64,000 nt of DNA, taken from the IMG/VR virus record IMGVR_UViG_3300025133_000024; one strand, 5' to 3'. Positions 3,300 through 58,934 of the stretch are shown here, piece after piece. Within the stretch, counting starts at the first letter, position 1. Every line of letters starts with the position of its first letter. Below the pieces are notes generated by a model. It worked only from the letters and a program-made list of their open reading frames with translations. It did not search any database and was not told where the DNA came from. Origin of the DNA: a virus. Position numbers and translations under genes: made by a program.

Positions 3300-3683
3300 T
3301 TATTTCCCAAAAAACATGCTAATGTCAATACCCGCATCATTTGGGTCCATTCCTAAAGGCGGCAATGAACTACCCTCAGACACCTTATCCACCGTTGCAT
3401 TAGGATGAACGTAATTTTTGTTACTTACATTCAGCCCTTCAAATACATTGACCCCGTTATACATGTTTTTAGAGAGTTCAGCGAGATTCTGCTTCTTTAG
3501 TGAAGGTTCGGTCGAAGAAGGAATTTGCGTTGATTCTTGGATGGCTGAGGAGGGAATATTTCGATTTAATCCTTTCATTGTTTCTGAGATGATGTTTGAT
3601 AGGATTTTTCCTTCTAAAAGGACTTCTTTGATGCATTCTTCAATTATTGGCTTTACAAGTTTTTTAAATTCGCTTTTTTTCAT
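3300..3683 (-). CDS. hypothetical head-region protein with IIEE/LLE leader
   Basis: N-terminus MKKSEFKKLVKPIIEECIKEVLLEG; next to the prohead protease. Confidence 0.7.
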   Translation of the reverse strand: MKKSEFKKLVKPIIEECIKEVLLEGKILSNIISETMKGLNRNIPSSAIQESTQIPSSTEPSLKKQNLAELSKNMYNGVNVFEGLNVSNKNYVHPNATVDKVSEGSSLPPLGMDPNDAGIDISMFFGK

Positions 3684-3684
3684 T

Positions 3685-4293
3685 TTATTTTACAATTTTT
3701 TCCATAAGTCCAAAAATTCGACTTAATTTATCACTAGTTTTTGTTGTTTGGATTTCTTTATATTCTTTAACAAGGAAAGCATTGGTTGTGGAAGGTTCTT
3801 GAACAATATCAAAACAAATCAGTTGATAATCATCTTCTACAAGCATTTTCCCGTTTTCTTCTCTTAGAGAACCAACACCCCTAGAGGAAATTCCTAACTT
3901 TACTCCGTCATTAATTAGAGTTTTAATGATATGTCCTGAGGGAGTGTTAAGAATTCTTAATTTCCCCATGACATTGTTTCCTTCCCACCAAACCTTTTCG
4001 ACCAAATGAGAAACATTTTTGAGGTTTACGACGGCTTCATCCCGGTGGTCCAATTCCCCTAATGCACGGGCTTCTTGAACCAATTGAAGGTATTTTTCCA
4101 TTTCTCTTTCAAGGGTTTCTTTTGGATATACTCTATTGTTGCCATTAACAGTCTCAGCAGCTTGAATAACACCTGTTAGGTAAACAGCATCATTTTCTTT
4201 TACATTGATTTTATCTTGTTCTGATAAATTATCTTTGCAAATACCATTTGGACACAATGCAAAGAATTCTCGAATTAATACTTTATTGGACAT
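3685..4293 (-). CDS. prohead core protease (T4 gp21-like)
   Basis: NGNNRVYP, ALGELDH, VSH, GISSRGVGSL and FDIVQEPST are gp21/S77 family motifs. Confidence 0.93.
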   Translation of the reverse strand: MSNKVLIREFFALCPNGICKDNLSEQDKINVKENDAVYLTGVIQAAETVNGNNRVYPKETLEREMEKYLQLVQEARALGELDHRDEAVVNLKNVSHLVEKVWWEGNNVMGKLRILNTPSGHIIKTLINDGVKLGISSRGVGSLREENGKMLVEDDYQLICFDIVQEPSTTNAFLVKEYKEIQTTKTSDKLSRIFGLMEKIVK

Positions 4294-4643
4294 TATTTAA
4301 TATCTCTTTCGTCTATGATTTGGAAATGCTCTCCGATTTTTTTTAATTTAACGTTTTCTAGATTTAAAGAAAAATTAAATCCATCTTTTGTAAATAAGGA
4401 GCATAGTAAAAAACTTGAGCAAGAACTTAATCCACCTAGTAAAAGACCTGTAATTGGATTATAATCAAAAGTGAATAATGTTGTGTATGTGTTTAATGAC
4501 CATAATAAAATACCAACATAAAAACCAACACACATTGGACAAGTGAAGAAATATTTTTTTGGTCTAATTTTATCGAAGATTTTACCCTTGGATAAGATTT
4601 GTGTTAAACCATATGAACAGAATATAAAGTATAATAGTTCCAT
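4293..4643 (-). CDS. membrane protein, DUF1360-like
   Basis: Hydrophobic segments around CPMCVGFYVG. Confidence 0.55.
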   Translation of the reverse strand: MELLYFIFCSYGLTQILSKGKIFDKIRPKKYFFTCPMCVGFYVGILLWSLNTYTTLFTFDYNPITGLLLGGLSSCSSFLLCSLFTKDGFNFSLNLENVKLKKIGEHFQIIDERDIK

Positions 4644-4669
4644 TTTAAACTTACCTAATGATGTTTATG

Positions 4670-5191
4670 TTAAAAAGATGCACCAAAGCTGCCACCATAA
4701 TTGTGAGGTCGATGTTTTCTAGGGATTGCACCTTTAAATTCTTTATGGGGCACTTTACCAAGTTCAGTAGTTTCATCTTCATCTGGAGAAGAGTATCTTT
4801 GGTTAACTTCTTTGTGGTAATCTTCTTCTGCTTTAAAATATTCTTTTTCTTGTTCTAAAAATTCAGCGATGTTCATCAACACCATATCTATAGCATTAAT
4901 ATCAGACTTAGAAATTGCTATGGACGCTTCTAAAGAATAATAAATTGAACCACCTTGAATAGTATCAGGAGGAATCAAGCCTCTTTTTACAAGAAAATCA
5001 AAGAGAATGTCTTGTGAACCATAAATGTATTCATTCATTTCTCTCTTTGGAAATGTAACAATCTTGTTCTTTTCAGGAATTATAACAATATCAATATCAG
5101 GATGGTCCCGAACAAAAATTCTACCATCAATTGTTTGATAAATTTTTAAGTCATAATTTATTGACTCGAATCTTTTAATTGTTAACTTCAT
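4670..5191 (-). CDS. hypothetical protein
   Basis: 173-aa ORF in the head cluster. Confidence 0.7.
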   Translation of the reverse strand: MKLTIKRFESINYDLKIYQTIDGRIFVRDHPDIDIVIIPEKNKIVTFPKREMNEYIYGSQDILFDFLVKRGLIPPDTIQGGSIYYSLEASIAISKSDINAIDMVLMNIAEFLEQEKEYFKAEEDYHKEVNQRYSSPDEDETTELGKVPHKEFKGAIPRKHRPHNYGGSFGASF

Positions 5192-5999
5192 TTTGACATT
5201 CTTTTATTAACTCATAAACATTACTAATTTTAAGAATCAACTCTTTATCGATTGCTTCTGTTTTAAACTCTTTTAATGTTGTATGAACAGTGTTTAATTG
5301 ATTTTTTAACAATTCATTTTCTTTAATGAATTTATAGGATTTTATTTTTATAATATCTTGCTCTATATTTGGAATCTCTTCATTAAGATAAGATTTTAAT
5401 GACAACTGATTGTCTGAGAAAGAGTTAATATATTCTTTTATCAAGATACTTTGTTTTTTAGTGAAATTTTGATACTTTTTGTTATATCTCTCAACAAACC
5501 TTCCCATAACAAGATTATCAACAGGCTTTAATTTTTCCTTCTCTTGATTTTTTGCACACATTTGCTCAAATAGGAAATTTTCCATGATTATCTTCTTTTT
5601 GATGTTAAGGCCATCTTTGAACAAAGAAGAGATTGTTGCAAGACTTTTATAATTTGGAACAAAGTTGTTATAAAATCTCTTATCAAGGATTTTGTTAATA
5701 TCTTTTATTAACTCACTTTGTTTTTCAAATAAGACTTTGTTGTCAAATGTTTTATAAACCTTGATTGACTCTTTTAATATTCTTTGAGCATCCTCTAGGA
5801 GGATATTTTGAGTTTCATAGATGTTTTTGTATAGTTCATATTCTTTTCCAAGAATATTATTTTTGCTAAAATGAGTTTTTAAAATTTTAACAATATTACT
5901 TTTCTTTTTCTGGTTTTTCTCAAAAATACTTTTGGACAATTCAATGACCAAAGATTCAAAAAGAAAAGCAACATTCCTTTTTTTATTATGTTTTATCAT
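5175..5999 (-). CDS. hypothetical head-cluster protein (helical)
   Basis: 274 aa, starts IKHNKKRNVAFLFESLV; directly downstream of the portal gene. Confidence 0.7.
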   Translation of the reverse strand: MIKHNKKRNVAFLFESLVIELSKSIFEKNQKKKSNIVKILKTHFSKNNILGKEYELYKNIYETQNILLEDAQRILKESIKVYKTFDNKVLFEKQSELIKDINKILDKRFYNNFVPNYKSLATISSLFKDGLNIKKKIIMENFLFEQMCAKNQEKEKLKPVDNLVMGRFVERYNKKYQNFTKKQSILIKEYINSFSDNQLSLKSYLNEEIPNIEQDIIKIKSYKFIKENELLKNQLNTVHTTLKEFKTEAIDKELILKISNVYELIKECQNEVNN

Positions 6000-8900
6000 T
6001 ATTGCCCTTTTCCTCTTTTAGGAATTCTTCTCTATCTTCTAGAACTTTAACAATAGATTTTAATCCTTCGTTAATAACTACAATATCACCCTCGGTTTTA
6101 TCGTTTTCTTCAAAAATTCCTTTACCCAAAGAAGTTAAACCAAACAAATCTTTACCAACTTGAGATGACCTGCCCCTTTTTGTATTCTTAGAAGACTCCT
6201 TAGAATACAAGGATTGCATCTGTTTTTTTCTAGCTCCTGTTTGCCTTCCATCATACTTCTCAGGACTATAAAACTTACCTTTTGAACCTGGAGTTGTATA
6301 TGAACCATCTCTTGTATTGATTTTTACTTTTTTTGGCTCCGGCTTTAATTCATCATTTCTCTTCCCAGGTTCCATTGGTTGTGCTAATAATGATGGAGCA
6401 TCCTCTTCACCTGAGGGAACATCCATTTCTGGACCTTCACCACCTGGAGGTTCAATTGGAATTTCCATATCACCTCCTTCACCACCAAATGATTCTTCTC
6501 CACCCATCAATCCACTTGCGCCAGGACCAAAACCTCCATCTTCCATCTGAGCGCCAGCAAAAACAGATTCAAGAGACATATCAAACTTTTTATCACTAAA
6601 GATTTCTCTTTGGTTTTGAATAAACTCATTTTCAGACAATCCAAAGATTTTTGTGGCAACCCAACGCTTACTGAAAAATCCTTCAGTTGCAGCCGATGCT
6701 ACATCAAATTTTGTTCTCCAGTGTTCTAGTTCTTGTAATTCTGCAATTTTTGATGGATTTGCTAAGTCATATTTAAAAGATAATAAATCATCATCTCTGA
6801 AGCCTAATGTGTAAAGATGTACAATACTCATTTTCTCCAATTCATTAATAACAGATAATTGCAATCTTTGAATGGTCCTTGCAAAACGAACATCTTTTTG
6901 AGCTAATGTGCTTCTATCTTCAAATCCACCATCTTCTCCACCCATCAAATACGCCTTCGGAATTTTAATGGCTGCAAATAATTTATTCTGAAGATATTTT
7001 ACATCATCAATGTCACCTGTGTAAGTTCCACCAGCTAATGATTCAATTCTTGTAGCGTTGTTTTGCCCCCTGGTTGCGATGTAATAGTCGTCTTCAACGG
7101 AATTTCTAACAAACACTCCTGATTTAGCCATTTTGCCTTCAATTAACTCGACATTATAACCAGATGTAGGAAATACTCTTGTAGAGCTATCAATTGTAAC
7201 ACCATAAGCATCACATCTCTCTTCAACCAACTTAACAGAAACAACTTTATGATTAATTATTGGATTTTTAGTGAATTTTTTACTTGGTTGCCCAACAAGA
7301 GACTTTGAATAACATTCATGAGTGCAATATTTTCTGTTTTTATCTCTAATTGTTCCAATAAATTTTTTATTACATTGTTTACAAGACCATTCAAGTTCTT
7401 GATAATAACCACCACCTAAAAATCTATTATCAAAACGCTCATTATCAAAATCATGGTTTTTTAAAAGTCGATTAAATTCTTGCTTTGTTAAGTTAAAATG
7501 TTTGTATACCTGTTTTCTAGATTTAACAAGATTAGTATCGCAATATTCAACAAGTATATTCCAAGGAACTCTCATTGAAATATAAAAATCCTTAACCTTA
7601 GTCAAAGAACCAAAATTGTTTTTTCTCAATTGCTTTAATAAAGCTTGTTTGTCAATTGAATCAATTGTTCCATTTTTGAAATCAGGATTCAATTCTTTCA
7701 AGTATTTAATAAAGTTAACATTTTCATTCAAATAATTAATTATTTGATGATTCTTTGCATTCGAGCCTAATTCATTCAATGATTCAAAAATATAATAAAT
7801 TATACTAGAATCTGTTTTAAGTGTTAATTTATCAACTCTCTTCTTTCGAACTTCTGGATTTTTCCAAAGCTCTGTCGCATGCTCTTTAAAATTATTGTGC
7901 GCTTTTCTAGTTTTTGCCAAAGTTTCCCTAGATTTTTGCCTTCCTTCTGGGGATTTAGCATATTTTAATAAATTTTCAACTAACTCTTTGTGGGCCTTCA
8001 TATGTTCACTTTGTGTCATTAGTTGTAAATTTGTTGGTCTATTATCAAATTTAACATGATTTCTATGGTGAACAATATAAGGCCACTTATATTTCCCCTC
8101 CATATGTTCCATTACAAGTTTGTGACAACTTTCTCTTTTATTTGACAAAGGATTGTAAATTTGAGTGTAAAAATTGTCTTTGTTCGAATATTTCTTTAAC
8201 CTATTGTTTTTCGAACAATAATATGGCATCAATGAATCACCAATTTTTAAATTTTCTGCTTCAATTAAAGTACCATCTCTCAACATCCACTTATGCTCAG
8301 GAGTTGTTTTTATTTTTTGACCATCATCTAATTCAACTTCTATAAATTGAGCATTCTGTTGAGTCTGTCCTGCCCACAATATTTTTGCAGGAATGGGCTT
8401 ATGTTCCTCGTTTAATGACCAAGTATAAAACTCTTCACCCTCTGACCACTCCTCAGATAATTGTTTAAATGTTTTTCTAGAACCGTCCAAAAGCTCGATG
8501 GTATCGAAGGGATAGTGTGATAAAGGGTTATATCTATAATCCACCTTACCTGTTGTGGTATCGACAATTTGATTCTTTCTTAACTCTGCTTGAAACTTCA
8601 ACATATATTGCTCGACTTCATCTGGAGCAATATTTCCAACATCAACGTAAAATACACGCCTCTCCGAACTCCTGACAACTCGATAGCTCATCATTGCATC
8701 TTCCAAAAGTGTCAACTGCCTAAATATACGTCTAGCAGGTTCGAATATTGAACTACCATAGGGCGCATATCTATCATCACCAAGAATTCTAAAGTGAGAG
8801 ACTTGCCAGGGTTCAAAAGTCATTCCGGCAGAGTTCCATTGATATTGTGTATAATTTGGATTTGTTAAGTCTTGCCCTTCTATTCGTTCAACTTCTCTTG

Positions 8901-9420
8901 TTGGAAGTGCAATGACATTTTTGATACCTAATTTTTCATCAATATCTAGATAAAGAAAGAAATCTCCATCTTTGCACATGTTCCTTGTCCAGTAGAACAA
9001 GTTTGCATCAATATTCAGGACATTATATAAGAATTCATGTAGGATTGATTTGATTTCTTGATTGGGGCAGTTAATTTTGACAAGTTCTTGGAATAAAGAT
9101 TTTGTTGTGATTTCTTCTGCATAAAGGTCGAGGGCGGCAGCCAATTCAGGAAGAAATAGCATTTGTGAAAAGTCTGCATATCTTTCTGCTCGTTGTTGTT
9201 CAGAGAGATAACGAGTGGACATGTGTTGGAAGAAGTCTCTGGAATGTAGCTTAAATGGTTGACCAGCGACATCATTAAATTGGCTTCTATATTTGTCAAT
9301 GTCTTGACGACGTTCACGAGAATGAAGTTGTCTTCTTCTTTTTGTAATGGGGCCTGAGAATAATCTTGTTAATGCTTTGTATAAGGCATTATCTTTATTT
9401 CTTGTATTTTCTTTTGTCAT
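5986..9420 (-). CDS. portal protein (T4 gp20-like) interrupted by an intein; about 671 aa after splicing
   Basis: gp20 motifs (PELAAALDLYAEE, WQVSHFR, PYGSSIFEPARR, LLEDAM..YR.VRSSERRVFYVDVGN, AAIKIPKAYL); removing aa 301-773 restores YRYNPL-SVEDDYYI. Confidence 0.93.
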   Translation of the reverse strand: MTKENTRNKDNALYKALTRLFSGPITKRRRQLHSRERRQDIDKYRSQFNDVAGQPFKLHSRDFFQHMSTRYLSEQQRAERYADFSQMLFLPELAAALDLYAEEITTKSLFQELVKINCPNQEIKSILHEFLYNVLNIDANLFYWTRNMCKDGDFFLYLDIDEKLGIKNVIALPTREVERIEGQDLTNPNYTQYQWNSAGMTFEPWQVSHFRILGDDRYAPYGSSIFEPARRIFRQLTLLEDAMMSYRVVRSSERRVFYVDVGNIAPDEVEQYMLKFQAELRKNQIVDTTTGKVDYRYNPLSHYPFDTIELLDGSRKTFKQLSEEWSEGEEFYTWSLNEEHKPIPAKILWAGQTQQNAQFIEVELDDGQKIKTTPEHKWMLRDGTLIEAENLKIGDSLMPYYCSKNNRLKKYSNKDNFYTQIYNPLSNKRESCHKLVMEHMEGKYKWPYIVHHRNHVKFDNRPTNLQLMTQSEHMKAHKELVENLLKYAKSPEGRQKSRETLAKTRKAHNNFKEHATELWKNPEVRKKRVDKLTLKTDSSIIYYIFESLNELGSNAKNHQIINYLNENVNFIKYLKELNPDFKNGTIDSIDKQALLKQLRKNNFGSLTKVKDFYISMRVPWNILVEYCDTNLVKSRKQVYKHFNLTKQEFNRLLKNHDFDNERFDNRFLGGGYYQELEWSCKQCNKKFIGTIRDKNRKYCTHECYSKSLVGQPSKKFTKNPIINHKVVSVKLVEERCDAYGVTIDSSTRVFPTSGYNVELIEGKMAKSGVFVRNSVEDDYYIATRGQNNATRIESLAGGTYTGDIDDVKYLQNKLFAAIKIPKAYLMGGEDGGFEDRSTLAQKDVRFARTIQRLQLSVINELEKMSIVHLYTLGFRDDDLLSFKYDLANPSKIAELQELEHWRTKFDVASAATEGFFSKRWVATKIFGLSENEFIQNQREIFSDKKFDMSLESVFAGAQMEDGGFGPGASGLMGGEESFGGEGGDMEIPIEPPGGEGPEMDVPSGEEDAPSLLAQPMEPGKRNDELKPEPKKVKINTRDGSYTTPGSKGKFYSPEKYDGRQTGARKKQMQSLYSKESSKNTKRGRSSQVGKDLFGLTSLGKGIFEENDKTEGDIVVINEGLKSIVKVLEDREEFLKEEKGNNDKT
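7102..8520 (-). mobile_element. intein (473 aa) with HNH homing endonuclease
   Basis: Block A SHYPFDTIELLDG; block B KTTPEHKW; HNH IVHHRNHVKFDNRPTNL; C-terminal NHKVVSVK...GVFVRN followed by Ser+1. Confidence 0.9.
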
Positions 9421-9448: not shown

Positions 9449-11053
9449 TTATCCAACAAACAACCAAGGAAATTGCTGTTGATGATTGTGTTGTTCTCTA
9501 AACTGCTTTTCTAGTCTTCTTCCAGATTCCTTTATTGAACCAATGTGCATACCAGGAATGCTCGTATCAAGAATCTTTCTCCCAACAGAAAAAGAATTCA
9601 ATAAAGCCTTTTTGTATTCACCTTCTCTTGTAGAGTTAATGATTGCTGTGTCCCTTACCCAACAAGCAATAGCCATCGCCATAACCAAGTCATCATTATA
9701 ACCTCGTTGAGCCTCAGGCTTTCCATTGTTCCAAACAAATGTGTCCAATTCATGAATGAACCTTCCAGAAGGAGATTTTAACACATTTAATCGAATATAT
9801 TCTTCTAATTTTGCAATAATTAATGGTCTAGTTTTCACTGTAGTCGTAAAACCAGGAATAACCGTAGAATCAGACAATGCTACAATAGGGTCAACATATA
9901 TATGTGTCCCTTTTTTTGAGTAATATAGATTCCTATATCCTTGCTCTTCTATTGTGCTAGCTACAGTAAAACCAACATTGTTGTTCTCAACAACCAACAT
10001 TGCACCACCATATTCCTTGGCAGTGTTCTCCAAAAATGATGAAAATACATCTAGTGAAGGTTTTCCCTTATACTCAGCAACAATTTCCATATCTTCTAGA
10101 TTTAACACAACAGCCGTTGAATAATCCTCTCCATCGCCCCTAGCAACATCAGCGGAAACAAGATAAGTGTTCTTTGGACTGTAATCCTTCCAAATCCAAT
10201 AATTTCTATCAAATCCTGTTCTATATTTTGGTTGTTGGATGTTGTTTTTTAATTTCTCAATGTGTTTCGGGTCAATAACTGTATGTCCAGAAGCGTTAAA
10301 AGCACACATATATTCCTGTGCAATTTCCCGTTCAGAAAAATTCTTTGTTTCTTTCTGGAACCATGCTTCATCTCTCTCAGGATGAACATCCCACATTAAC
10401 TCTGTTAATAAAAATTCGTTCTCTCCTGTTTGAGCCTCAACACACGTTTTGTGAAACCATGACCCAACACCTTTTGGACTTGATAACCCAATCACTGAAC
10501 CTGCAACACTTACAGTTGGATAAATTGAAGTCCAAATCTCATCCATATTGTCAATATGAGCAGCCTCATCAATAACCAATAAAGAAAGTGCATCTGAACG
10601 ACCAGCATCACCGGCTGTAGATTCTGCGGCACATCTTGAGCCATTTTCTAATTCAATAAGGGTTCGATTGTCGTTTGCAAAATCAGATAATTTTAACCAA
10701 GAAGGCATTTTAGTGAGGATGGTTCTGACTTTTCTGAGGATATTTTGAGCTTTTTGTTGTTTGGTTGCGATAACCAAGACTTCTTTGTATTTATAGAAAT
10801 TTATTAACCATGCAATATAACCAGCAACAATAGTTGAAATACCAAGTTGTCTAGCTTTAAGAATGATATTATAACGATAATCTCTAAATTTTCTGAGAAG
10901 GTCTTCTTGGTAATCGAATGTATTAAACAATATCTCACCTTTTTTGGGATGAGATATTTTTGCATAATTGCACAAGAAATAAACGGGGTCTTTACCACAT
11001 CTTATGATTTCTTCTTTTATTTGAGATTTGGTTAGAGATAACCTTCGAGCCAT
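9449..11053 (-). CDS. terminase large subunit (T4 gp17-like)
   Basis: ILKARQLGIST (Walker A), LVIDEAAHI (Walker B), SADVARGDGEDYS and NDDLVMA nuclease motifs. Confidence 0.95.
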   Translation of the reverse strand: MARRLSLTKSQIKEEIIRCGKDPVYFLCNYAKISHPKKGEILFNTFDYQEDLLRKFRDYRYNIILKARQLGISTIVAGYIAWLINFYKYKEVLVIATKQQKAQNILRKVRTILTKMPSWLKLSDFANDNRTLIELENGSRCAAESTAGDAGRSDALSLLVIDEAAHIDNMDEIWTSIYPTVSVAGSVIGLSSPKGVGSWFHKTCVEAQTGENEFLLTELMWDVHPERDEAWFQKETKNFSEREIAQEYMCAFNASGHTVIDPKHIEKLKNNIQQPKYRTGFDRNYWIWKDYSPKNTYLVSADVARGDGEDYSTAVVLNLEDMEIVAEYKGKPSLDVFSSFLENTAKEYGGAMLVVENNNVGFTVASTIEEQGYRNLYYSKKGTHIYVDPIVALSDSTVIPGFTTTVKTRPLIIAKLEEYIRLNVLKSPSGRFIHELDTFVWNNGKPEAQRGYNDDLVMAMAIACWVRDTAIINSTREGEYKKALLNSFSVGRKILDTSIPGMHIGSIKESGRRLEKQFREQHNHQQQFPWLFVG

Positions 11054-11555: not shown

Positions 11556-11873
11556 TTATTCTCTAAATTTTTGTTTTGAAGGTTGTGTTGGTTGTGATAC
11601 TGATGGGTTTGAAGGTCTTTTCCCACCCATTGATACAATTGGTGCAATATCATGTTCTGCTTCTTGACCAGCAAAAGACTTTCCTGGTTGCTGACCTGTG
11701 ACCAACATTTTCAAAAGCTTTATAATCTGTGGACCCAAATCTTCCTTCATTACCGCAATTAATTCATCAAATTTTCCAATAACCTTGCCATGATAAGCAG
11801 AATTGGTGTCTGATGTCATAAATTCCTTCATTGTTTCTTCTAAAATGATTTGCTTTACTTGTTTTTTATTCAT
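11556..11873 (-). CDS. hypothetical protein with IILEE leader
   Basis: Start moved to 11873 (MNKKQVKQIILEETMKEF), which overlaps the upstream stop at 11866-11868. Confidence 0.6.
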   Translation of the reverse strand: MNKKQVKQIILEETMKEFMTSDTNSAYHGKVIGKFDELIAVMKEDLGPQIIKLLKMLVTGQQPGKSFAGQEAEHDIAPIVSMGGKRPSNPSVSQPTQPSKQKFRE

Positions 11874-12579
11874 TTTGTTGACTTCCAAATCCAAAACGAC
11901 CATGTTCTGGGCCACCGACTTGTCCACCTGTTGCTGTTATAGCGCTTGCAGAACGAGTTTGTCGCGGGATGAGTTCTTTTTGTAGCTCCATTAATTCATC
12001 ATAAATTCGATATAATAATTGTTGACTTTGTGTTGTTTTACCCTTGTTTTTTCCTGCAAACTCTTTAGATGGATCTAAAGAGCTTTGCCCATCTAAATCT
12101 TTATCTACACCCTTCTCGATACCGGAAATTGGCACTCTCCCTTGTGAAGACATCCGATTTCCTTTCCGACGCATCTCTTTTTTTCTCTTTAAACGAGCTA
12201 TTTGTTGAGCATTTTTATCTTCATATGATTCTTGTAGGTCACTCATAAGGTTGCCTTTTCCGAAGGGGTGTCTAACTGGTCTAGACAAAAGAGTCTGGAA
12301 GTTTCCATCTAAACGTCCTGTTTGAAGAAATTGTTTTAAAGAATTAGTTAACTTTGATAACTTTCCATGAACGTCATTTTCCAATTCCCCTGAGGGGCTG
12401 TCATCCAGCTTCTCATTTTCTTCATCCCAATCCTTTCCACCAAATTTACTCTTGATCGAGCCCCATAAGCTTTCTTCAAGAGTATCCTCAGAAATATCTT
12501 CAAGTTCTTCGGAAACATAATCAATTTCTTCCTTGATTATTTGTTGTAATCTTTTTTTTGTGATTGTAAAATCTGACAT
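11866..12579 (-). CDS. hypothetical protein with IIKEE leader
   Basis: Start moved to 12579 (MSDFTITKKRLQQIIKEEIDYV); GGAGA RBS upstream; avoids overlap with 12605..13069. Confidence 0.65.
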   Translation of the reverse strand: MSDFTITKKRLQQIIKEEIDYVSEELEDISEDTLEESLWGSIKSKFGGKDWDEENEKLDDSPSGELENDVHGKLSKLTNSLKQFLQTGRLDGNFQTLLSRPVRHPFGKGNLMSDLQESYEDKNAQQIARLKRKKEMRRKGNRMSSQGRVPISGIEKGVDKDLDGQSSLDPSKEFAGKNKGKTTQSQQLLYRIYDELMELQKELIPRQTRSASAITATGGQVGGPEHGRFGFGSQQNE

Positions 12580-12604
12580 TATATTTAATTTCTCCAATAT
12601 TTGT

Positions 12605-13069
12605 TTATCGATGTGGTTCTTGATAAGTTGTTCCTCTGTCACCAGAAGATTGATTTTGATTAAGCGTTGACTGTCTTTCTTTGGCAACTTTAGCCATACC
12701 AGCAATAAATTGCTCCAAAAGAAGTAGGGTCTGTTGTCCACTTGGAAAATACCTAATATTACTTAAACTCATTAGAAGTCTAGATAAAAAGAAGTTCCCC
12801 GACGCACCAGGAGGGCGAAGCTCGAGTTCGTAATCTTTGTATTCTCTGCTATATAACATATTAACCAGTTGCATTGTTAGGTTTTTATTATCTGTTAACA
12901 ACGCACTAAATGTTAATTCACCGATGTTTGGAACATTGTTAGTTTGTTGAGTTTGTCGCTGATGAGGTAATCCTGGAGGAGGAGCCATCTGTTGAGGAGT
13001 TTTTGGCCTTTCCTGAAGATTCATTTCTTCAATAATGATTTTCTTTAAAATTTCATTAAAATTTGACAT
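12605..13069 (-). CDS. hypothetical protein with IIIEE leader
   Basis: MSNFNEILKKIIIEEMNLQER followed by a Q/P-rich linker. Confidence 0.65.
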   Translation of the reverse strand: MSNFNEILKKIIIEEMNLQERPKTPQQMAPPPGLPHQRQTQQTNNVPNIGELTFSALLTDNKNLTMQLVNMLYSREYKDYELELRPPGASGNFFLSRLLMSLSNIRYFPSGQQTLLLLEQFIAGMAKVAKERQSTLNQNQSSGDRGTTYQEPHR

Positions 13070-14743: not shown

Positions 14744-14926
14744 TTAATATTTTAACAAAGCTTTGTAGCCAACTCCAGCAATTTCACTATGAAACTCTAT
14801 ATTCCACTTGCCATTCCATCTCCAGAAGACGCAACCAGGAGAAAGATTTAGAATTATTGAATTTATTGCAGTTATTATCACATCACCTTTATTTATTGCT
14901 TCAAGTTGAACTCTTTTATTCATCAT
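14744..14926 (-). CDS. small hypothetical protein (KGD-type)
   Basis: 60 aa, INKGDVII. Confidence 0.55.
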   Translation of the reverse strand: MMNKRVQLEAINKGDVIITAINSIILNLSPGCVFWRWNGKWNIEFHSEIAGVGYKALLKY

Positions 14927-15128
14927 AATAAAACCTCACACATTCTCTAGTATTGCGATGAAAACAAAGAGATAAAGTTTCAAGTTGAAAATACCAGAAT
15001 TGACCCTGGTATCTTTTATTTTCATTTAACAAAATATAAGCATGTCTGGAATCTTCCGAAATAACCAAATCTCCCTTTTTACCACCAGACATGAGGAAAT
15101 TTGAATGTCGTTTCGATGCATGACTCAT
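14916..15128 (-). CDS. small hypothetical protein (KGD-type)
   Basis: 70 aa, KKGDLVIS. Confidence 0.55.
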   Translation of the reverse strand: MSHASKRHSNFLMSGGKKGDLVISEDSRHAYILLNENKRYQGQFWYFQLETLSLCFHRNTRECVRFYYDE

Positions 15129-15131: not shown

Positions 15132-15365
15132 TTAACCCCTTTTATCTTTGTTTCGATATGTTTTTAGTTCATAATCTCTATAAGCAAAGCAGCGATGACT
15201 AGAATTATTTCCAAAATTTAGCAATTTTATTTTGCCATCATAATAATGCAAAGAAATTAAATTCGTGGTGTCATCTTTACCTGCTGTGTTATCAACAGCA
15301 AGATAAAGCTGTGTTAGGGGCGATATAATCAAGTCTCCCCTTTCAATATCTTTTCTTCTAATCAT
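15132..15365 (-). CDS. small hypothetical protein (RGD-type)
   Basis: 77 aa, IERGDLIIS; TAATG-coupled to the SbcDC gene. Confidence 0.6.
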   Translation of the reverse strand: MIRRKDIERGDLIISPLTQLYLAVDNTAGKDDTTNLISLHYYDGKIKLLNFGNNSSHRCFAYRDYELKTYRNKDKRG

Positions 15366-18520: not shown

Positions 18521-18709
18521 TTAATAAGTTAATTTTTGGTAACATGAATTATTAAACTTTTCTTCTCTTGCTTCGTTTAAGTGGCATATAAAAAGGCCAA
18601 CAAATAAATATTCAAGTTTTTCGCCTCTTTTCAAAACAATTCTACAACTTCCCCATTCCGAAAGAATTAAATCACCTTTTCTGAACTTGGAGTCTGGCAA
18701 ACAATTCAT
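18521..18709 (-). CDS. small hypothetical protein (KGD-type)
   Basis: 62 aa, FRKGDLIL. Confidence 0.55.
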   Translation of the reverse strand: MNCLPDSKFRKGDLILSEWGSCRIVLKRGEKLEYLFVGLFICHLNEAREEKFNNSCYQKLTY

Positions 18710-18720
18710 TAGATTATTCC

Positions 18721-19662: not shown

Positions 19663-19663
19663 T

Positions 19664-48138: not shown

Positions 48139-51100
48139 TTATAATTCCAATGGCACCTTTAACGACCCCAAGCAGACATTCTGAAGGGTTTTTGAGAATT
48201 CTCTGGCTGCTGACATAGACACACCTGTTTCAAACTCTATTTTTTGTTCTAAAATTGAATTATTTTTAATTTTTTCCAAAAGGTCTTTTCCGACAATGTT
48301 TTCAAATGCGAGATATGCGAATCCAAGTGGAGAAGGAATGAGACCTGTTACAGTCAAGAAAATAGAGGGAACCTGAATTGATAAATCTGGAACCTTTTCA
48401 AATTCTTTGGCAAGGTCAATCACCCACTGGGAGGATATTAACTTATCTTTTTCTTCTTGCAGGGTTTCTAGACCTTTTGCAATGTTTTTTATGATTTGTA
48501 ATAAGGGTTTTGCTTCATTTAAAATTTTCTTCTTATAACTATTTGCCACATCTACAATTTTTTTCGATAATGATATGTTTGGGTCAAAAGTTTCCACCAA
48601 ACCCTTCAACATTATATAAGGAGTTGAATTTCTTATATAATCAATATCAAAAAACCTAGAATTCTCAGAATCTAAATTCAAATTGTTACCAGAAGCTAAA
48701 ATTCCCACATCATCATTAAACGCAACCCTTTTATTATCCTTAAATTTCACGTTATCAATGTTTTCAATATTTTCTAACAACGAAAAGATGTTGTTTTTAA
48801 CATTATTGAACATTGAATCGATTGAAGTCGTGCTTCTATTATACAAAACCATATATAAAACAAACATGGATGATAATTTTGATATTGGAAAGAGGTTATC
48901 AAAGATTAATTTATAGTCATTTTGTCCTTCAAGGCTCTTTACAAGCCTTTCCTTGAGACATTCTTCAAAAAACCTATCAAAAAGCACCCTTTCCTTCGTT
49001 TTCTTCTTTGTCTCTGCGCTCTGTTCTGGTTCACAATCATCTTTCCCTTTTTTGTTGTCTGAGAATAGGGATGAAATCTCTGTAATGTTGGATAAAGACT
49101 TGTTGATTATAGACTCTTCTTCATACAAGATTGGAATAATAACAGATTCGCCCGTTTTTTTATTGGAATAATACTTTGTTGGAGGTAATAATGGAGATGA
49201 TACAAATCCGTTCCTAAATCTTTGTATTGACTTCCTTGTGCTGGCTTGCGTATAGAGAAAATCGTCAATAAATTCTACAATATCACTATTTGTATAAAGT
49301 TTATTGGTCTTTACAGAATATAACTTAAACAATTTGCTATATTCTTCGAAAGAATAGTTTTTTCTCCCATTGATGATGACATTAATCTTATTATTTGTTT
49401 TATTTTCGCTTGTTAACAAGGTTAAGTCCCATTTATTGGTCCTTAACATCTTGTTTATCTTTTGTGTATCTTTCTCTGTCTTTGTTTTCCAAAAAAGTTG
49501 GATTGTTACCTTTTCTATAAGCCCCGCCTTTCTTACTCCTCGAACAGTTTGCTGCACAAGAAAATGGTTTGGTGTTTCGCTATCCCCAGGCTCAAAGTAA
49601 TCTTTCGTTTCATAGTTCAATTTTGAACTTCTTTTTGTGATAATCTTCCTGAGGAGGTCTTTTTCTTTTTGTGTTGGTCGATATAATAACCGAACACCAA
49701 CTTTCAGGTCATCGAAGTAATCTATGAAGTTATTTTTATCTTTTTTCTTTATAAAATTAAGATATTCGTTAAATGATTCAATATTAACAAACCCATTTAA
49801 TACCTTTTTGTTTTGTGGAGGGATGAATTCCTTTTTATAAGAAGGTTTCACATATGTTTCAAAGAAAAACCCGTTTTCTTCTGTGTTATATTTGTTTATT
49901 AATTTATTAACGTCTTCAATATTAACAAAACGTCTAGAAATGAAATCTTTTTGTTTGGAAGATAAGTTTCTGTTTTCAAACTCAACAAAACGCCCTCCTT
50001 TATTCCTATAATCCAAGTCTGATTCAGGAAGAGCTACAAAAGGAAAGAGTTTATCCTGAAATGACTTGATAGAAAAGTTATTAGATTGAATAACGTCTGG
50101 CTTGTATAATAATTGTCTTAATCGATTAGAGACCAAAACTAATTGCTCTGAAACTAGGGATTGTAGAGCTTTTTTACAGTCTATATTTGATTCATTTGAT
50201 TTAATCTTGTTGAGGTAAAGAGAGCCAACAATTTCATAGAATTGTTCTAGAAACTTATCATCTCTTCTTTTTTCTTGTTCTAAAATTATCTCTTTTTCAA
50301 TCTTAGAGCATATAAACAATGACAAGAAGTTTTCAATATCACTTGCATCAAGATGAATTTTGGAAAAAAAGAAGATGGATGATAAAACAAACTCTACCAC
50401 ATACAATCTTATCAAGATTTGCACAACCGAACTTGATAAAACCAAATTTAATTGCTTATCAGAGTCCTTCTCTTCAAAACAAACAGCAATGTTGGTATAA
50501 TCGTCCAGTGCTTTTCTCTTAACTTCCGATAATCTCATCAAATCAACATCAATGTTGCAATCTAGCCCCCCAGATTTAATTTTTGGAGAGAAATTAATAA
50601 ATTCTAATAGATTTACCTCTGATAGACCTCTATCTTTATCCAAATCCTTAATAGAAAAATCTCTTGTTTGTTCAGTCGTTGTCTCAATAGTGTTGAACAA
50701 AGGAGATAAAGAAACAAATTCCCCGATTCTCTTGATAAAACTTATGTGAATGTTATCATATCCATTGTTTTTATAAAATGAATGGATTTGTTGTTCTTCC
50801 TGAGGGGAGATGTCGTTAAACTTCTTCTTTAAAGAGTCAATAATCATATTTGACCACACAGAAGCATAAAATTTCTTGTTGGATGACTTTATCTTTTGAT
50901 TCTTAAAAATCTCATTGTTTTTATCTGTCCACTTTTCACTTTCTTCTGTGGAAAACCTCTTTTCTTTTACAAAACCAGTTTCAAATTGAGGTTTTATCTT
51001 GTTTTTAATGGGTTTCGTGCTGTTATATTCATTTTGAACTACTGCCACATCTATTTCTTTTGGGGGTGAGACAATGACCTTATTTGTGTTGCAATCCTTT

Positions 51101-53211
51101 TCAGTTTTTACTGAGGGGGATAGTATTTTTTGTTTGGCAATGTACAGAATGTTAAAATCTTCTTTGATATTGCCATCAACATCAATTGAAGAGTCGAAAG
51201 AAAACTTTAAATCATTAGATTCTTGCTTTGGGAAGCTTCTTTCGAAGAGTTTCCCTTTAAAAACTTCTGCTATCTTCTTATGTAAGTCACTTGGGAAAGA
51301 AAAATCAATGATTCCTGTATTAACAGAACAGAATTCTTTTGTATTTTCCCTTTTTATTCTTTCTAGTAGGTCAGGTTGGACCTTTTTTCTTTTATTTGTT
51401 TCCCCAAAAGAGCTTTCTTGGAGGTTTTTCAAGCCTTTCATGTCTAGAAAATCATTAATTTTCTTATCACCATCTAACGAACCTTCGATTATGTCTTTTA
51501 ATCTCTTATTATCTTCGTTTAATGATGAAAATGTCTTATTATATTGCTTGTTATATTCATCTTGATACAAATCTACAACTTTTTCTGTTAAATTTAGTAG
51601 AGTTTCATCTTCCTCAGTGTTAATTTCAACTTCTTTTAACAAACGAGAGACATATGATAAGAGAGCATGGTCATATGACATTCCAATTGAATCCAACAAG
51701 CCATCTAAAATTGTTTCTGTTGTTAAAGACAAACCCTTCTTGATACTTTTTAATAAAATATCATCTTCAGATATACGGCAAAGGTTATTTATGTTGAAAT
51801 CTTTTACTTCTGTTTCTTCTAAAATGTTAAAAAGATTCTGTAAATCATTTAAATGTTTTGATTTAATTTTTTCTAAAAGGGCTTCTACTTGGTTTTTATC
51901 AAAACCAACACCCCCTAATAAACATTTCTTCAGGCTATCCCTGTCATTATCAAAACAAGGCCCAAAATTTCCACCAGAGTCAATAATGTCTTCACATATC
52001 TCTAAATCCACAGCTTCAGACAACAAAACAAAGAAGTCAATCATTGATTCTCGGTCGTTTAATAGATTCTTTAAGTCAGGATAAAAAGTGTTTACAAGCT
52101 CGCTAACAATAATAAACACATCAGATGGCAATTTCCCTTTTAACAACCCACAAAATTCTGCTGAGGATAGGGTTGTTGCCATTTTGTCAACCAAAGATGA
52201 TAAATCACTTGCATTATCTCCAAATCTATTAACCAATAACTCTTGTGTTTTATTTGGTCTCTTTATTAACAACGGAGAGTCTACAATACAAGTTTCATGA
52301 ATAATTTGTTGCAATAATGAACTTAAAAATCTAATAGAAAAAGTTACCACTGTACTTTTGATGTTCTTTTCCAGATTTTCTTGAATAAAAGATAAGAAAT
52401 CAACTGTTGGAATGTTATCAAGTAACTTAAATGTTGGAACTTTTGGCAATTGATTCTTATATTTAAGAAATTTTTCTTCAAATACAGTTCCAATGTTAAG
52501 AATTTTTTTAAATGAATCAAAATTCAAAGATAACAACTCACATAAAGAATCAACACTTGCTATTTCATCAATCTTAGATAAAAGGTCATCAACTTCTTTT
52601 GCAGAATTTGCAACTTCTTCTGTTTGATTCAATAATAATTCACCAATTTGTAGAATAAAAGATTCAATATCACGGAATAAAGAAATAAATTCTTTAACCT
52701 TATCGAGATCAGAATTTTTTAACATATTTCTCAAAATGTTTTTGCAAAGTTCTTTCTGTACTTGAAAAAATGGTAGTTTTTTATTAAGACATTCAATAGA
52801 AACTGCAATAAGAGATTTTAAATCATATTTGTTTAAAATTTTATTGTAGACTTTTTCGATTTTATTAAGTTCTTTTTCAATATCCTTGAATGTAACTGAT
52901 AAATCTTCTTGCTTTCTGTATCTCTGTTTATCAAGTTTCTTAGACAGTTCTTCAAGAATCTCAGAATCTTCTAATAATTGTTCCTCAAGAGCAATTAAAT
53001 GTTCTTCTTCTTTTATTGTATCTGAGGAGTATTCTTTTAAAAATCCTTCTGTAACTTTATTCAACATTGATTTGTATCTCTGTTTATCAAGTTTCTTAGA
53101 CAGTTCTTCAAGAATTTTTTGAGCTTCTTCTTGAACTTCTTCTTGAACTTCTTCTTTTATTGTATCTGAGGAGTATTCTTTTAAAAATTTTTCTGTAACT
53201 TTATTCAACAT
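48139..53211 (-). CDS. giant helical hypothetical protein
   Basis: 1690 aa, K/E/L/I rich; lies between the spike and gp25 genes; N-terminus duplicated. Confidence 0.7.
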   Translation of the reverse strand: MLNKVTEKFLKEYSSDTIKEEVQEEVQEEAQKILEELSKKLDKQRYKSMLNKVTEGFLKEYSSDTIKEEEHLIALEEQLLEDSEILEELSKKLDKQRYRKQEDLSVTFKDIEKELNKIEKVYNKILNKYDLKSLIAVSIECLNKKLPFFQVQKELCKNILRNMLKNSDLDKVKEFISLFRDIESFILQIGELLLNQTEEVANSAKEVDDLLSKIDEIASVDSLCELLSLNFDSFKKILNIGTVFEEKFLKYKNQLPKVPTFKLLDNIPTVDFLSFIQENLEKNIKSTVVTFSIRFLSSLLQQIIHETCIVDSPLLIKRPNKTQELLVNRFGDNASDLSSLVDKMATTLSSAEFCGLLKGKLPSDVFIIVSELVNTFYPDLKNLLNDRESMIDFFVLLSEAVDLEICEDIIDSGGNFGPCFDNDRDSLKKCLLGGVGFDKNQVEALLEKIKSKHLNDLQNLFNILEETEVKDFNINNLCRISEDDILLKSIKKGLSLTTETILDGLLDSIGMSYDHALLSYVSRLLKEVEINTEEDETLLNLTEKVVDLYQDEYNKQYNKTFSSLNEDNKRLKDIIEGSLDGDKKINDFLDMKGLKNLQESSFGETNKRKKVQPDLLERIKRENTKEFCSVNTGIIDFSFPSDLHKKIAEVFKGKLFERSFPKQESNDLKFSFDSSIDVDGNIKEDFNILYIAKQKILSPSVKTEKDCNTNKVIVSPPKEIDVAVVQNEYNSTKPIKNKIKPQFETGFVKEKRFSTEESEKWTDKNNEIFKNQKIKSSNKKFYASVWSNMIIDSLKKKFNDISPQEEQQIHSFYKNNGYDNIHISFIKRIGEFVSLSPLFNTIETTTEQTRDFSIKDLDKDRGLSEVNLLEFINFSPKIKSGGLDCNIDVDLMRLSEVKRKALDDYTNIAVCFEEKDSDKQLNLVLSSSVVQILIRLYVVEFVLSSIFFFSKIHLDASDIENFLSLFICSKIEKEIILEQEKRRDDKFLEQFYEIVGSLYLNKIKSNESNIDCKKALQSLVSEQLVLVSNRLRQLLYKPDVIQSNNFSIKSFQDKLFPFVALPESDLDYRNKGGRFVEFENRNLSSKQKDFISRRFVNIEDVNKLINKYNTEENGFFFETYVKPSYKKEFIPPQNKKVLNGFVNIESFNEYLNFIKKKDKNNFIDYFDDLKVGVRLLYRPTQKEKDLLRKIITKRSSKLNYETKDYFEPGDSETPNHFLVQQTVRGVRKAGLIEKVTIQLFWKTKTEKDTQKINKMLRTNKWDLTLLTSENKTNNKINVIINGRKNYSFEEYSKLFKLYSVKTNKLYTNSDIVEFIDDFLYTQASTRKSIQRFRNGFVSSPLLPPTKYYSNKKTGESVIIPILYEEESIINKSLSNITEISSLFSDNKKGKDDCEPEQSAETKKKTKERVLFDRFFEECLKERLVKSLEGQNDYKLIFDNLFPISKLSSMFVLYMVLYNRSTTSIDSMFNNVKNNIFSLLENIENIDNVKFKDNKRVAFNDDVGILASGNNLNLDSENSRFFDIDYIRNSTPYIMLKGLVETFDPNISLSKKIVDVANSYKKKILNEAKPLLQIIKNIAKGLETLQEEKDKLISSQWVIDLAKEFEKVPDLSIQVPSIFLTVTGLIPSPLGFAYLAFENIVGKDLLEKIKNNSILEQKIEFETGVSMSAAREFSKTLQNVCLGSLKVPLEL
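52917..53211. repeat. duplication of the 5-prime end of the 1690-aa gene
   Basis: 43-bp identical block at 52917-52959 and 53073-53115; near-identical block including the ATG, offset 144 nt; internal 12-bp repeat encoding VQEE twice. Confidence 0.88.
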
Positions 53212-56782: not shown

Positions 56783-56783
56783 T

Positions 56784-57101
56784 TTACACCTCTCCTTCTT
56801 GCTCCACCAATCGAGCCTTAAATTTTTCCTTAACACGCTCCTCCATCTCAGGAGAAACCTTAACCGTTGGAGGATTTGTTACATACAATTTTCCGTTAAA
56901 ACCAACCTTAAACTTAAATTCTTGAACGATATTCGAAATATCAACCTGCTCCATTAAACCCTTTTGCAAGGCAAACATAACAGCAGCAAGAGCCTGTTCA
57001 GATAAAACAAGGTCTCCAGATTGAATCTCTTCTTTTTTTAATCCCTTTGTTAATTCCGCTAAAAGGGATTTATTTACTTTTTTCTTATCTAATTCTAACA
57101 T
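56784..57101 (-). CDS. hypothetical protein
   Basis: 105-aa ORF. Confidence 0.65.
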   Translation of the reverse strand: MLELDKKKVNKSLLAELTKGLKKEEIQSGDLVLSEQALAAVMFALQKGLMEQVDISNIVQEFKFKVGFNGKLYVTNPPTVKVSPEMEERVKEKFKARLVEQEGEV

Positions 57102-57102
57102 T

Positions 57103-58080
57103 TTACCACCTATAATTGTTTTTGTAATGTTCTACAATATTTTTAATTTCTTTTTCAAAATACTTTTTGGGTTTATACCCCAACTCAATTAATTTACTTT
57201 GATTCACAGCATACCTAACATCCTGTCCAGGTCTAACATGAGATAAATCAAAATATTTCTTCTTTTCTTCTGAGGTTAGTTCTTGATGAATGTCTCTATC
57301 TAAAAATGAATTCACAATCATCGATGTGACACTCATATTCTTTAATTCTTCATTTCCAGCCACATTATAAACTTCATTCCTTTTACCCTTTTCCACAACT
57401 GTTAAAATTGCTTCTGCTGTATCTTCAGCATGTAACCAACTTCTCACAGGGTTTCCTTTATTATGCAATTTTATTTTTTTATCTTCTTGCAACAACTTTA
57501 CACACAATGGAACCAATTTCTCAGGATACTGATAATTCCCATAATTGTTTGTTGGCCTAATAATATTATATTTCAAGCCATATGTTCTTGCCCATGATTT
57601 AATTAATAAATCCCCACTAGCTTTTGATGCTGCATAAGGATTTGAAGGGTTTAAAGGATTACTTTCATAAAAGTGACCAACCTCTATATCACCGTATACT
57701 TCGTCGGTTGAGACGTTTACCAAGATAGGTTGGTCCCTAATGTTTTTTGGTTTCCTGGAGATAAGTTCTAAAAGATTTCTCACTCCATCAACATTGGTTT
57801 TGATAAAATCTTTGCAATCAATTATCGAATTTCCAACATGAGTCTCAGCAGCCAAATTAATAACAAAATCACAATCGGGCAATCTTTTTAAATCGCAGAT
57901 ATCCTCTTTTAAAAAAGTATAAGTTTTTATATATTTTCCCAGAAGTTTATAATGTTCATCTTTGTTTGCAGCATATGTCATCTTATCAATTCCACATACT
58001 CGATAACCATTTTCCAGAAACTTCTTTGTTACATATGTTCCAATAAATCCACAACATCCTGTGATAACAACTGATTTCAT
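57103..58080 (-). CDS. rfbB: dTDP-glucose 4,6-dehydratase
   Basis: TGCCGFIG, DKMTYAA, AAETHV, STDEVYG, NPYAASK, NNYG.YQYPEKL. Confidence 0.88.
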   Translation of the reverse strand: MKSVVITGCCGFIGTYVTKKFLENGYRVCGIDKMTYAANKDEHYKLLGKYIKTYTFLKEDICDLKRLPDCDFVINLAAETHVGNSIIDCKDFIKTNVDGVRNLLELISRKPKNIRDQPILVNVSTDEVYGDIEVGHFYESNPLNPSNPYAASKASGDLLIKSWARTYGLKYNIIRPTNNYGNYQYPEKLVPLCVKLLQEDKKIKLHNKGNPVRSWLHAEDTAEAILTVVEKGKRNEVYNVAGNEELKNMSVTSMIVNSFLDRDIHQELTSEEKKKYFDLSHVRPGQDVRYAVNQSKLIELGYKPKKYFEKEIKNIVEHYKNNYRW

Positions 58081-58511
58081 TTTTCTTCTCTATTTTTTTG
58101 TTCTAAAAAATGCCAAGCTCTTTGATAACCCCATGAAACAGGTTTCCGTCCTCTCCCCAATCCCTCAACAATTGTTAAATTTCCTGAGAATGATAGGAAA
58201 GTCTTTATTGGCATAATATAAAATATATCCAAATTGTCAACATAAATTAACGCAAAATCAAAATCTGTTTCTTGATATTTTTCTTTCTTTTTGCCTCTTC
58301 TTGTGTTGACAACATATTTTTCTTCATTGTTTTTTGAGGCAGTCTTAACTTGAATCTTGTACAAACATCCTTTAACATCAAATATCAAATCATATGGTAA
58401 ATTATCACCAACAGGCTTAGAAACACCATAGTTTCTTTTTAATGCATGAACTATAGCCATATTCTCTGCTATATCACCAAGTTGTTTTCTATAGGATGTT
58501 TTGTATTTCAT
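58077..58511 (-). CDS. free-standing PD-(D/E)XK endonuclease (intron-associated type)
   Basis: GDIAE...VSKPVGDNLPYDLIF...KIQVKT. Confidence 0.82.
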   Translation of the reverse strand: MKYKTSYRKQLGDIAENMAIVHALKRNYGVSKPVGDNLPYDLIFDVKGCLYKIQVKTASKNNEEKYVVNTRRGKKKEKYQETDFDFALIYVDNLDIFYIMPIKTFLSFSGNLTIVEGLGRGRKPVSWGYQRAWHFLEQKNREEK

Positions 58512-58520
58512 TTACAAGGA

Positions 58521-58934
58521 TTAACGATTTTTCTTTAATGATACAGTCGGATCAGTATATTTTGGAGCCGTGACAGTTCTTGCAAATGCCTTAGAATCAG
58601 GATAACCTTCTCTTTCGGTTGTTTCCCTTTCCCTTTGTTCCTGGACTCTTACAATAATCGCATCAGCCCAATCAATATAATCATCCATTGCGTACATTTC
58701 GCTACGAGATAAATTAATCATTTCTACAGCAACATCAACATAATCAAAGGAAACATCAGTTTCTTTAACAACCAGTTGTTCAATTTTCTTTAATACACCA
58801 ATTACTTCTTCCGTAGGTTTGTTTTCCATTTTTAACAAAACAGCAATTTGGTCAACAATGTTCTTTAAAGCCTCTGGATGTATGGCTTCATTAACAAACT
58901 CTTTCCAGTTTTTTATAAATTTTTTATTCTGCAT
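58521..58934 (-). CDS. hypothetical protein with NWKEFVNE leader
   Basis: Start likely at 58934 (MQNKKFIKNWKEFVNEA), 1 nt after the cupin stop. Confidence 0.6.
   Translation of the reverse strand: MQNKKFIKNWKEFVNEAIHPEALKNIVDQIAVLLKMENKPTEEVIGVLKKIEQLVVKETDVSFDYVDVAVEMINLSRSEMYAMDDYIDWADAIIVRVQEQRERETTEREGYPDSKAFARTVTAPKYTDPTVSLKKNR

Follow-up and report, generated by a model that had tools for sequence, protein, structure and literature searches.

The N-terminal propeptides of phage T4 proteins give affinity for the prohead core and are removed by the gp21 protease, with separable residues for targeting and for processing (PMC9026906, PMC3012670). They are 10-19 residues long, and in a 10-residue propeptide, residues 8 and 10 are needed for processing of the capsid targeting sequence (CTS) (PMC9026906). 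The internal proteins of T-even phages are diverse and share only a conserved CTS (PMC3012670), and review authors see in the CTS a means by which T4-like phages could package varied proteins (PMC9026906, PMC3012670). Here we describe another such peptide in a 64-kb stretch of viral DNA (IMG/VR record IMGVR_UViG_3300025133_000024; hereafter the window), a fragment of an uncultured far-T4-like myophage with 33% GC. Seven otherwise unrelated window proteins begin with variants of one short peptide. By analogy with T4, this shared N-terminus is probably a tag of the CTS kind with a new consensus, which would target proteins to the prohead and then be removed.

Like the T4 CTS, the tag is a short N-terminal segment, a putative propeptide with an [I/L]-x-E end, carried by unrelated, fast-evolving small proteins in a phage with a gp21-type protease. 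One candidate cargo may be related to the ADP-ribosyltransferases (ARTs), as T4 Alt is. The tag differs from the T4 CTS in consensus (MK.TK.QLKQIIKEEI.KVL.E here, MKTYQEFIAE in T4), in being about twice as long with two site-like motifs, in the acidic character of many of the protein bodies behind it, and in its setting, an uncultured aquatic far-T4 clade with at least 90 body families. Because its IIxEE consensus differs from MKTYQEFIAE, the tag does not belong to the T4 CTS sequence family. We would thus say that it may 'work like' the T4 CTS, not that it is 'homologous to' it.

Loading by short peptides has other parallels. Encapsulin cargo-loading peptides and P22 scaffold fusions show that HK97-fold shells can be filled with foreign cargo by means of a short peptide alone, but these signals sit at the C-terminus, work by shell binding or as scaffold fusions, and are not proteolytically removed. 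The head and ejection proteins of phiKZ and SPN3US (cut at S/A-x-E by gp175 or gp245) share with the system described here a related protease, cleavage after Glu and several sites per propeptide, and SPN3US has paralogues, gp53 and gp54, with identical N-termini (PMC5694885, PMC9026906). Extra sites within a propeptide are thought to aid clearance of the fragments (PMC5694885). Unlike the tag, phiKZ and SPN3US propeptides mostly exceed 100 residues and have Ala or Ser, not Ile or Leu, at P3, and they are not known to include one short portable tag. Leaders beginning MNWYK..., MNRYDIALGKKP and MKRYI in huge and T4-type phages (unverified) follow the same one-peptide-many-proteins logic with different sequences and in different phage groups. 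A literature search for the phage motifs QIIKEE, QIIREE and KIIKEE found nothing relevant.

A shared leader in the window and in IMG/VR

All window genes lie on the minus strand and the coordinates listed in the initial annotation were stop-side ends, so the leaders sit at the high-coordinate ends of their genes. Open reading frames (ORFs) are named below by their low coordinate (Table 1). Starts were set from the stop of the upstream gene and a Shine-Dalgarno-like sequence, which places the real start inside the longest ORF for 11556, 11866, 41917, 24326 and 58521. The TTG start at 42693 is the least certain; ATGs at 42741 and 42744 would shift the tag core to residue 24 or 25.

We found six matches to [IL]I.EE in the 68 minus-strand ORFs of the window (21,140 amino acids (aa) in total), all six within the first 14 residues (chance about 9e-9). 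The seventh leader, on ORF 3300, has the variant PIIEEC. An unbiased all-against-all comparison of N-terminal 26-mers recovered the same family and placed it above every internal-segment control. The claim of the initial annotation that unrelated ORFs share an N-terminal pattern is confirmed for these seven, as is its expectation of N-terminal over internal enrichment, which the IMG/VR matches below also bear out. No pairwise similarity between the tagged window proteins was detected outside the leader, and none matched a Pfam or PHROG family. The Ile, Lys and Glu codons differ among the leader copies, indicating that conservation acts at the peptide level. The conserved late structural genes are separated by variable slots, and the tagged genes sit in these; overlap of start and stop codons is frequent.

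Three weaker members had also been proposed. ORFs 23029 and 24326 each keep [IL]-x-E but scored near background with both leader models. The protein starting at 58934 (NWKEFVNE) is a different sequence and does not belong to the IIxEE family.

To survey IMG/VR, the octapeptide KQIIKEEI was back-translated and used as query, giving at least 119 loci. A start codon lay 5-9 codons upstream in 119 of the 128 distinct matches listed (93%), most often at 8 codons (78 matches) or 6 (37). The matches have the consensus MK(I/L/V)TK(S)QL-KQIIKEEI or MKKSEL-KQIIKEEI, followed by x-K-[VLI]-L-x-E. Conservation stops exactly at [VLI]-L-x-E, six residues past the core, and gives way to unrelated sequence rich in G, D, P and S. 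Against this consensus, the window leaders read as shortened variants of a full form MK(I/L)TKSQL-KQIIKEEI-xKVLxE. ORF 11866 was the best window match of the independent IMG/VR tag model, at 19.4 bits. Among the matches listed, the octapeptide was encoded by 77 different 24-mers.

The tagged proteins are highly varied: 110 of them fell into 92 BLAST clusters, 80 of these singletons, with a median length of about 113 aa. Only six tagged IMG/VR proteins had a Pfam match. In one (L154:6893-7471, minus strand), a J domain (NYYLTLEV...HPD) begins directly after KQIIKEEIG; it may be a packaged co-chaperone that hijacks DnaK. Another matches FliG_C (1.8e-8). Several contigs carry runs of three or four consecutive tagged genes, and tandem arrays of small tagged genes occur on L083, L093, L126, L140 and L143. 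A search for late promoters upstream of 121 tagged genes gave only a weakly enriched motif, TATTTAT (7.8-fold, 20/121). A separate and puzzling observation is a small tagged phage protein with a match to Pfam Rhabdo_ncap (rhabdovirus nucleocapsid) at 9.5e-29.

Controls separated the tag from chance and from cellular sequence. The reversed peptide IEEKIIQK occurred at 3 loci in all of IMG/VR, at least 40-fold more rarely. In 596 Gb of prokaryote genomes the forward pattern matched 89 times, for the most part out of frame or inside unrelated proteins, and only 14 of the 89 passed the same lax N-terminal test (Fisher 3e-33 against IMG/VR). The tag is almost confined to viral sequence.

We also examined relatives of the window phage, gathered via the protease and as whole contigs, one of which (G002) is a complete 171-kb genome. 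Among cultured phages, Flavobacterium phage immuto and Microcystis phage Mel-JY01 are nearest, their large terminase (TerL) proteins being about 41% identical to that of the window. With a tag model built from the window only, the top five matches in G002 were all N-terminal, as were the top two in immuto, G003 and G001. The immuto genome (MW353177) carries tagged genes at 81481-81900, 102250-102825, 102836-103315, 113144-113902 and 123311-123532. Relatives thus carry the same kind of N-terminus on non-orthologous proteins; except for ORF 3300, the tagged genes of the window had no orthologues in G001, G002, G003 or immuto. G003 and G001 lack the three tagged genes at 11556-13069, which form an insertion immediately upstream of the TerL region. 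A tblastn search of cultured phages with a 24-aa tag was uninformative.

In immuto (MW353177), a second shared N-terminus, ME(N)xF(D/N)LKKFL(V/T)ENKL, was seen on four otherwise different proteins (4772-5320, 18597-19598, 19598-19897 and 26207-26434), one of them encoded right after the protease gene. This second leader also ends in L-x-E, around residue 12.

Cleavage-type sites, the prohead protease and the adjoining gene

A 22-column alignment of the seven window leaders has just two invariant columns, I7 and E9, which together spell I-x-E, the type of site cut by T4 gp21. Counted from the start of each protein, the last residue of the first I-x-E falls at 9-17 and that of the tag at 15-24. 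A second [ILV]-x-E follows 5-9 residues after the first in each strong leader; in the protein starting at 11873 the next site is M-K-E. The tag has the pattern of a 15-24-residue amphipathic helix, with hydrophobic residues at i, i+3, i+4, i+7 and i+11, and a helix was predicted there, with low confidence, in the model of ORF 41031.

The initial annotation rightly reported a gp21-like protease in the window. It shares 34% identity with T4 gp21, and the catalytic residues, His (in ELDH) and Ser (in GISSRG), line up between the two proteins. Its own N-terminus, MSNKVLIRE, has an I-R-E ending at residue 9; T4 gp21 has LIE-9 at the same place (PMC9026906). The scaffold and capsid genes of the window phage lie beyond the low end of the window; the capsid and scaffold comparisons used clade relatives. 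At the position of the T4 gp23 maturation site (LTE/A in T4, the slash marking the cut), clade capsid proteins have LRE/A, LRE/V, VVE/A and VSE/A. Because they keep this motif at the gp23-equivalent site, the [LIV]-x-E specificity of the protease is plausibly retained in the clade.

The protease family and the tag tend to occur together. Peptidase_S77 (PF03420) was present in 16 of 20 long tag-bearing contigs and 8 of 20 controls (p = 0.011), the former mostly 20-65% complete and the latter composition-matched and picked by an arbitrary K/E/I-rich heptapeptide. Among contigs of up to 110 kb, the counts were 13 of 17 tag-bearing and 2 of 12 control (p = 0.002). The proteases encoded on tag contigs have their closest counterparts in Mel-JY01 and immuto, the window's own clade.

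ORF 3300 begins where the protease gene ends, its start abutting the protease stop. The orthologues in L001-L007 and L017 likewise follow the protease directly, and throughout the window's subclade the gene starting at or within 3 nucleotides of the protease stop encodes a protein of 127-146 aa that begins MKKSE(F/L)KK.(I/L)KP(L/I)(I/V)KECIKE..LEEG. The family has 60 homologues, all annotated as hypothetical, in which the N-terminus MKKSELKxILKPLIKECIKExLLEEG is nearly invariant and the middle is variable. In other T4-type phages this position is occupied by the scaffold gene. The initial annotation had counted ORF 3300 among the diverse payloads. That assignment fails, since the protein, of about 130 aa, is a member of a conserved family whose gene immediately follows that of the protease, and not variable cargo; it is more likely a prohead-core component carrying the archetype of the tag. 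The family and the portable tag have the prefix MKKSELK..I.K in common, and the independent tag model picks up the family member in G008. This shared prefix ties the tag to the head module and suggests that the tag originated as the N-terminus of the conserved post-protease protein.

Candidate cargo and genomic surroundings

An ART-like and a zincin-like enzyme had been proposed among the payloads. For ORF 30776, a language-model and structure comparison gave an Atlas score of 0.93, 179 shared features and a template modelling (TM) score of 0.64 to clusters partly carrying PF18760. Set against this, no Pfam match was found, even at E = 5, and the AlphaFold2 (AF2) model from its single sequence had a predicted local distance difference test score (pLDDT) of 44, too low to be usable. 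The protein is an ORFan among 5.8 billion proteins; one tagged IMG/VR protein shares with it only the tag and a GN.I..[FY]H stretch. The relationship to ART-PolyVal (PF18760) is a lead only.

In ORF 41031, H182, E183 and H186 (HExxH) and E227 are invariant in 4 homologues, with HExxH...E kept in the three distant relatives found among 1.84 billion representatives. Its AF2 model from 4 sequences had a pLDDT of 60, and Foldseek searches of the PDB and VIA-wide gave no meaningful fold match; the zincin assignment drawn from the motif is likewise a lead only. One homologue (P0003) has a leader of its own ending in LTE/KRAS where the window protein has LIE/KRAS, and another (P0004) starts MNWY. Sequence searches found no PDB relatives for the cargo proteins.

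The window holds a T4-type head module of large terminase, gp20-like portal and gp21-like prohead protease, together with baseplate and tail genes (gp25-like and M23) and, at its high end, a sugar-nucleotide island. Coordinates are collected in Table 1.

Table 1. Tagged genes, possible tags and head genes of the window (N-terminal segment: the tag, or the segment compared with it, with its position).
Feature	Position	Strand	N-terminal segment	Protein N-terminus	Remarks
Conserved small head-module protein, 127 aa	3300-3683	-	MKKSEFKKLVKPIIEECIKEVLLE (3612-3683, first 24 aa; tag variant)	KLVKPIIEECIKEVLLE	
Tagged ORFan, 105 aa	11556-11873	-	MNKKQVKQIILEETMKE (11823-11873)	KQVKQIILEETMKE	no orthologue in G001, G002, G003, immuto
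Tagged ORFan, 237 aa	11866-12579	-	MSDFTITKKRLQQIIKEEIDYVSE (12508-12579)	KRLQQIIKEEIDYVSE	polar and charged
Tagged ORFan, 154 aa	12605-13069	-	MSNFNEILKKIIIEEMNLQE (13010-13069)	EILKKIIIEEMNLQE	P/Q-rich, isoelectric point 9.6
Tagged protein, 205 aa	30776-31393	-	MFLIRKLIKEEVLKE (31349-31393)	LIRKLIKEEVLKE	ART-PolyVal-like lead
Tagged protein, 298 aa	41031-41927	-	MNIKQIIKEEIQKLIE (41880-41927)	NIKQIIKEEIQKLIE	HEFTH...E, putative metallopeptidase
Tagged ORFan, 258 aa if TTG start	41917-42693	-	MKNRIKKIIKEETKRLLLE (42637-42693)	NRIKKIIKEETKRLLLE	
ORFan, 113 aa, possible degenerate tag	23029-23370	-	MKCIIKKVLKE (23338-23370)		variable slot, without orthologues
ORFan, 155 aa, possible degenerate tag	24326-24793	-	MKLRIIKE (24770-24793)		without orthologues
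Protein with a different N-terminus	58521-58934	-	MQNKKFIKNWKEFVNE (58887-58934)		among sugar-nucleotide genes; resembles T4 MKTYQEFIAE by eye only
T4 gp21-type prohead protease (Peptidase_S77)	3685-4293	-			phrog_207 at 8.8e-54
gp20-like portal with putative intein/HNH insert	5986-9420	-			phrog_213 at 2.4e-61
Large terminase (TerL)	9449-11053	-	SQIKEEIIRCGKDP (tag-like helix)	MARRLSLTKSQIKEEIIRCGKDP	phrog_2 at 6.5e-46

Several neighbouring genes drew attention in their own right. The portal is 1144 aa long, against about 630 aa in relatives, and HNH endonuclease matches fall at residues 403-613; the extra length would fit an inserted intein/HNH element. A gene for ribosomal protein S21 (2856-3059, minus strand; Pfam 7e-14) is embedded in the head module, a few genes past the protease, with orthologues in G003 and G001 and a gene annotated RpsU at the same place in Mel-JY01. 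Three minus-strand neighbours (29729-29959, 31393-31962 and 31959-32561) differ in their N-terminal parts and have in common a C-terminal cassette of about 42 aa (BLASTP 4e-12 to 4e-10, 51-55% identity). This cassette could be a counterpart to the N-terminal tag; in T4, Alt undergoes C-terminal processing too.

Flanking a gene for a 1046-aa SbcCD-like protein are four tiny minus-strand ORFs of 60-77 aa (14744-14926, 14916-15128, 15132-15365 and 18521-18709) with a common N-terminal motif, (K/R)GD(L/V)(I/V)I(S/T), which look like a small paralogous family. Between baseplate genes, a 572-aa protein without orthologues in the relatives (44217-45935, minus strand) ends in NLEQIILEQLRDFI and has a faint match to Peptidase_Mx1, a zinc metallopeptidase family, near its C-terminus (E = 0.095). 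A 1690-aa protein upstream of the gp25-like gene (48139-53211, minus strand) begins MLNKVTEKFLKEYSSDTIKEEVQEEV, with tag-like LKE and IKE sites and a low model score.

How the tag may work and what it would mean

N-terminal restriction, portability, peptide-level selection, the site motif, the conserved protease and confinement to a T4-type clade are computed properties of the tag. On the T4 model, the following course can be proposed. Late in infection, the tag helix would bind the growing prohead core and so bring the protein to it. Cleavage after Glu by the gp21-type protease would follow, at the I-x-E in the tag core and at the L-x-E at the tag end, releasing the body within the head; when the phage next infects a cell, the body may exit together with the DNA. 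We infer core binding, cleavage, packaging and ejection by analogy with T4. The initial annotation had called the leader a portable packaging signal: portability (92 clusters from 110 proteins), N-terminal placement, the [IL]-x-E sites and the excess of Peptidase_S77 in tag contigs uphold part of that reading; packaging and ejection are argued for by this analogy.

Several observations weigh against a CTS-like role. [ILV]-x-E is common in the window proteome, at about one per 46 residues, so a cut-type site in a Glu/Ile-rich helix is weak evidence alone. Most tagged bodies are acidic, unlike the basic internal proteins of T4, and ORFs 30776, 41031 and 41917 have tail and baseplate genes as neighbours. 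The terminase is not among the packaged proteins, yet it and its relatives also start with a tag-like helix, which shows that the pentapeptide alone is not diagnostic; we take this helix to align with an internal helix of T4 gp17. The link between tag and protease is real but confounded by lineage, since the tag marks one clade of T4-type phages. Nor is the tag universal among phages encoding Peptidase_S77, as its canonical form is absent from Mel-JY01 and cyanophage S-RIM2, both of which encode the protease. Our literature search found no proteomic study of immuto or Mel-JY01. Scaffold mimicry was considered but is not statistically supported. The T4 CTS resembles the N-terminus of gp22, and by eye the N-termini of the clade scaffolds (LLKQAIAEAK) resemble the tag, but they ranked 105th or lower among 1602 N-termini with both models.

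Some of these points would suit a docking or oligomerisation helix for a partner outside the core, such as tail or baseplate assembly, a phage or host hub protein or a chaperone, which the head protease would leave in place. Three tagged genes belong to baseplate and tail operons, the a/d-type hydrophobic spacing fits a generic coiled-coil helix, and the terminase begins with a similar one. Yet the conserved protein whose gene directly follows the protease also opens with the tag prefix, the residues that never vary are precisely those of I-x-E, conservation ends at L-x-E, and no other conserved partner gene was seen. We regard docking of this kind as unlikely. Less likely again is common descent, in which most tagged genes would be rapidly diverging paralogues within a single family of small proteins, constrained at the N-terminus and serving, for instance, as core or scaffold-like fillers. 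Tandem arrays of small tagged genes, on the five contigs named above and at 11556-13069 in the window, are what such a family would produce, as are bodies that are mostly short, polar ORFans lacking Pfam domains. Independent domains fused directly to the tag (the J domain and FliG_C) speak against it, however, as do homologues of the ORF 41031 body that carry other N-termini. This explanation is compatible with head targeting and would mainly alter the word 'unrelated'.

Conservation at the nucleotide level, as in a translation-initiation or recombination cassette, or a chance low-complexity helix could be imagined in an AT-rich genome with abundant Lys, Glu and Ile codons. The use of 77 distinct 24-mers for one octapeptide, the rarity of the reversed peptide and the positional test in the window make either very improbable. 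A CTS-like tag thus remains the reading we favour.

A wider proposal, which we hold more tentatively and as somewhat short of an even chance, is that an abundant, mostly uncultured aquatic clade of T4-type phages uses one tag, about 22 residues long and with two cut sites, to load some 100 or more unrelated small protein families into capsids, among them J-domain, ART-like and metallopeptidase-like proteins. The archetype of the tag would be the N-terminus of a conserved core protein encoded beside the protease gene, and the tagged ORFans would form a catalogue of effectors for host takeover and anti-defence in the first minute of infection.

If the tag does work in this way, the packaged and injected proteins of this phage group could be identified from metagenome sequence alone, a task that now needs virion proteomics of cultured phages, and a large pool of effectors acting in the first moments of infection would come into view. 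The tag would also provide a second natural address, unrelated in sequence to that of T4, for directing foreign cargo into T4-type capsids. For the biology of the group, the CTS principle would extend from three or four T-even proteins to a whole far-T4 clade.

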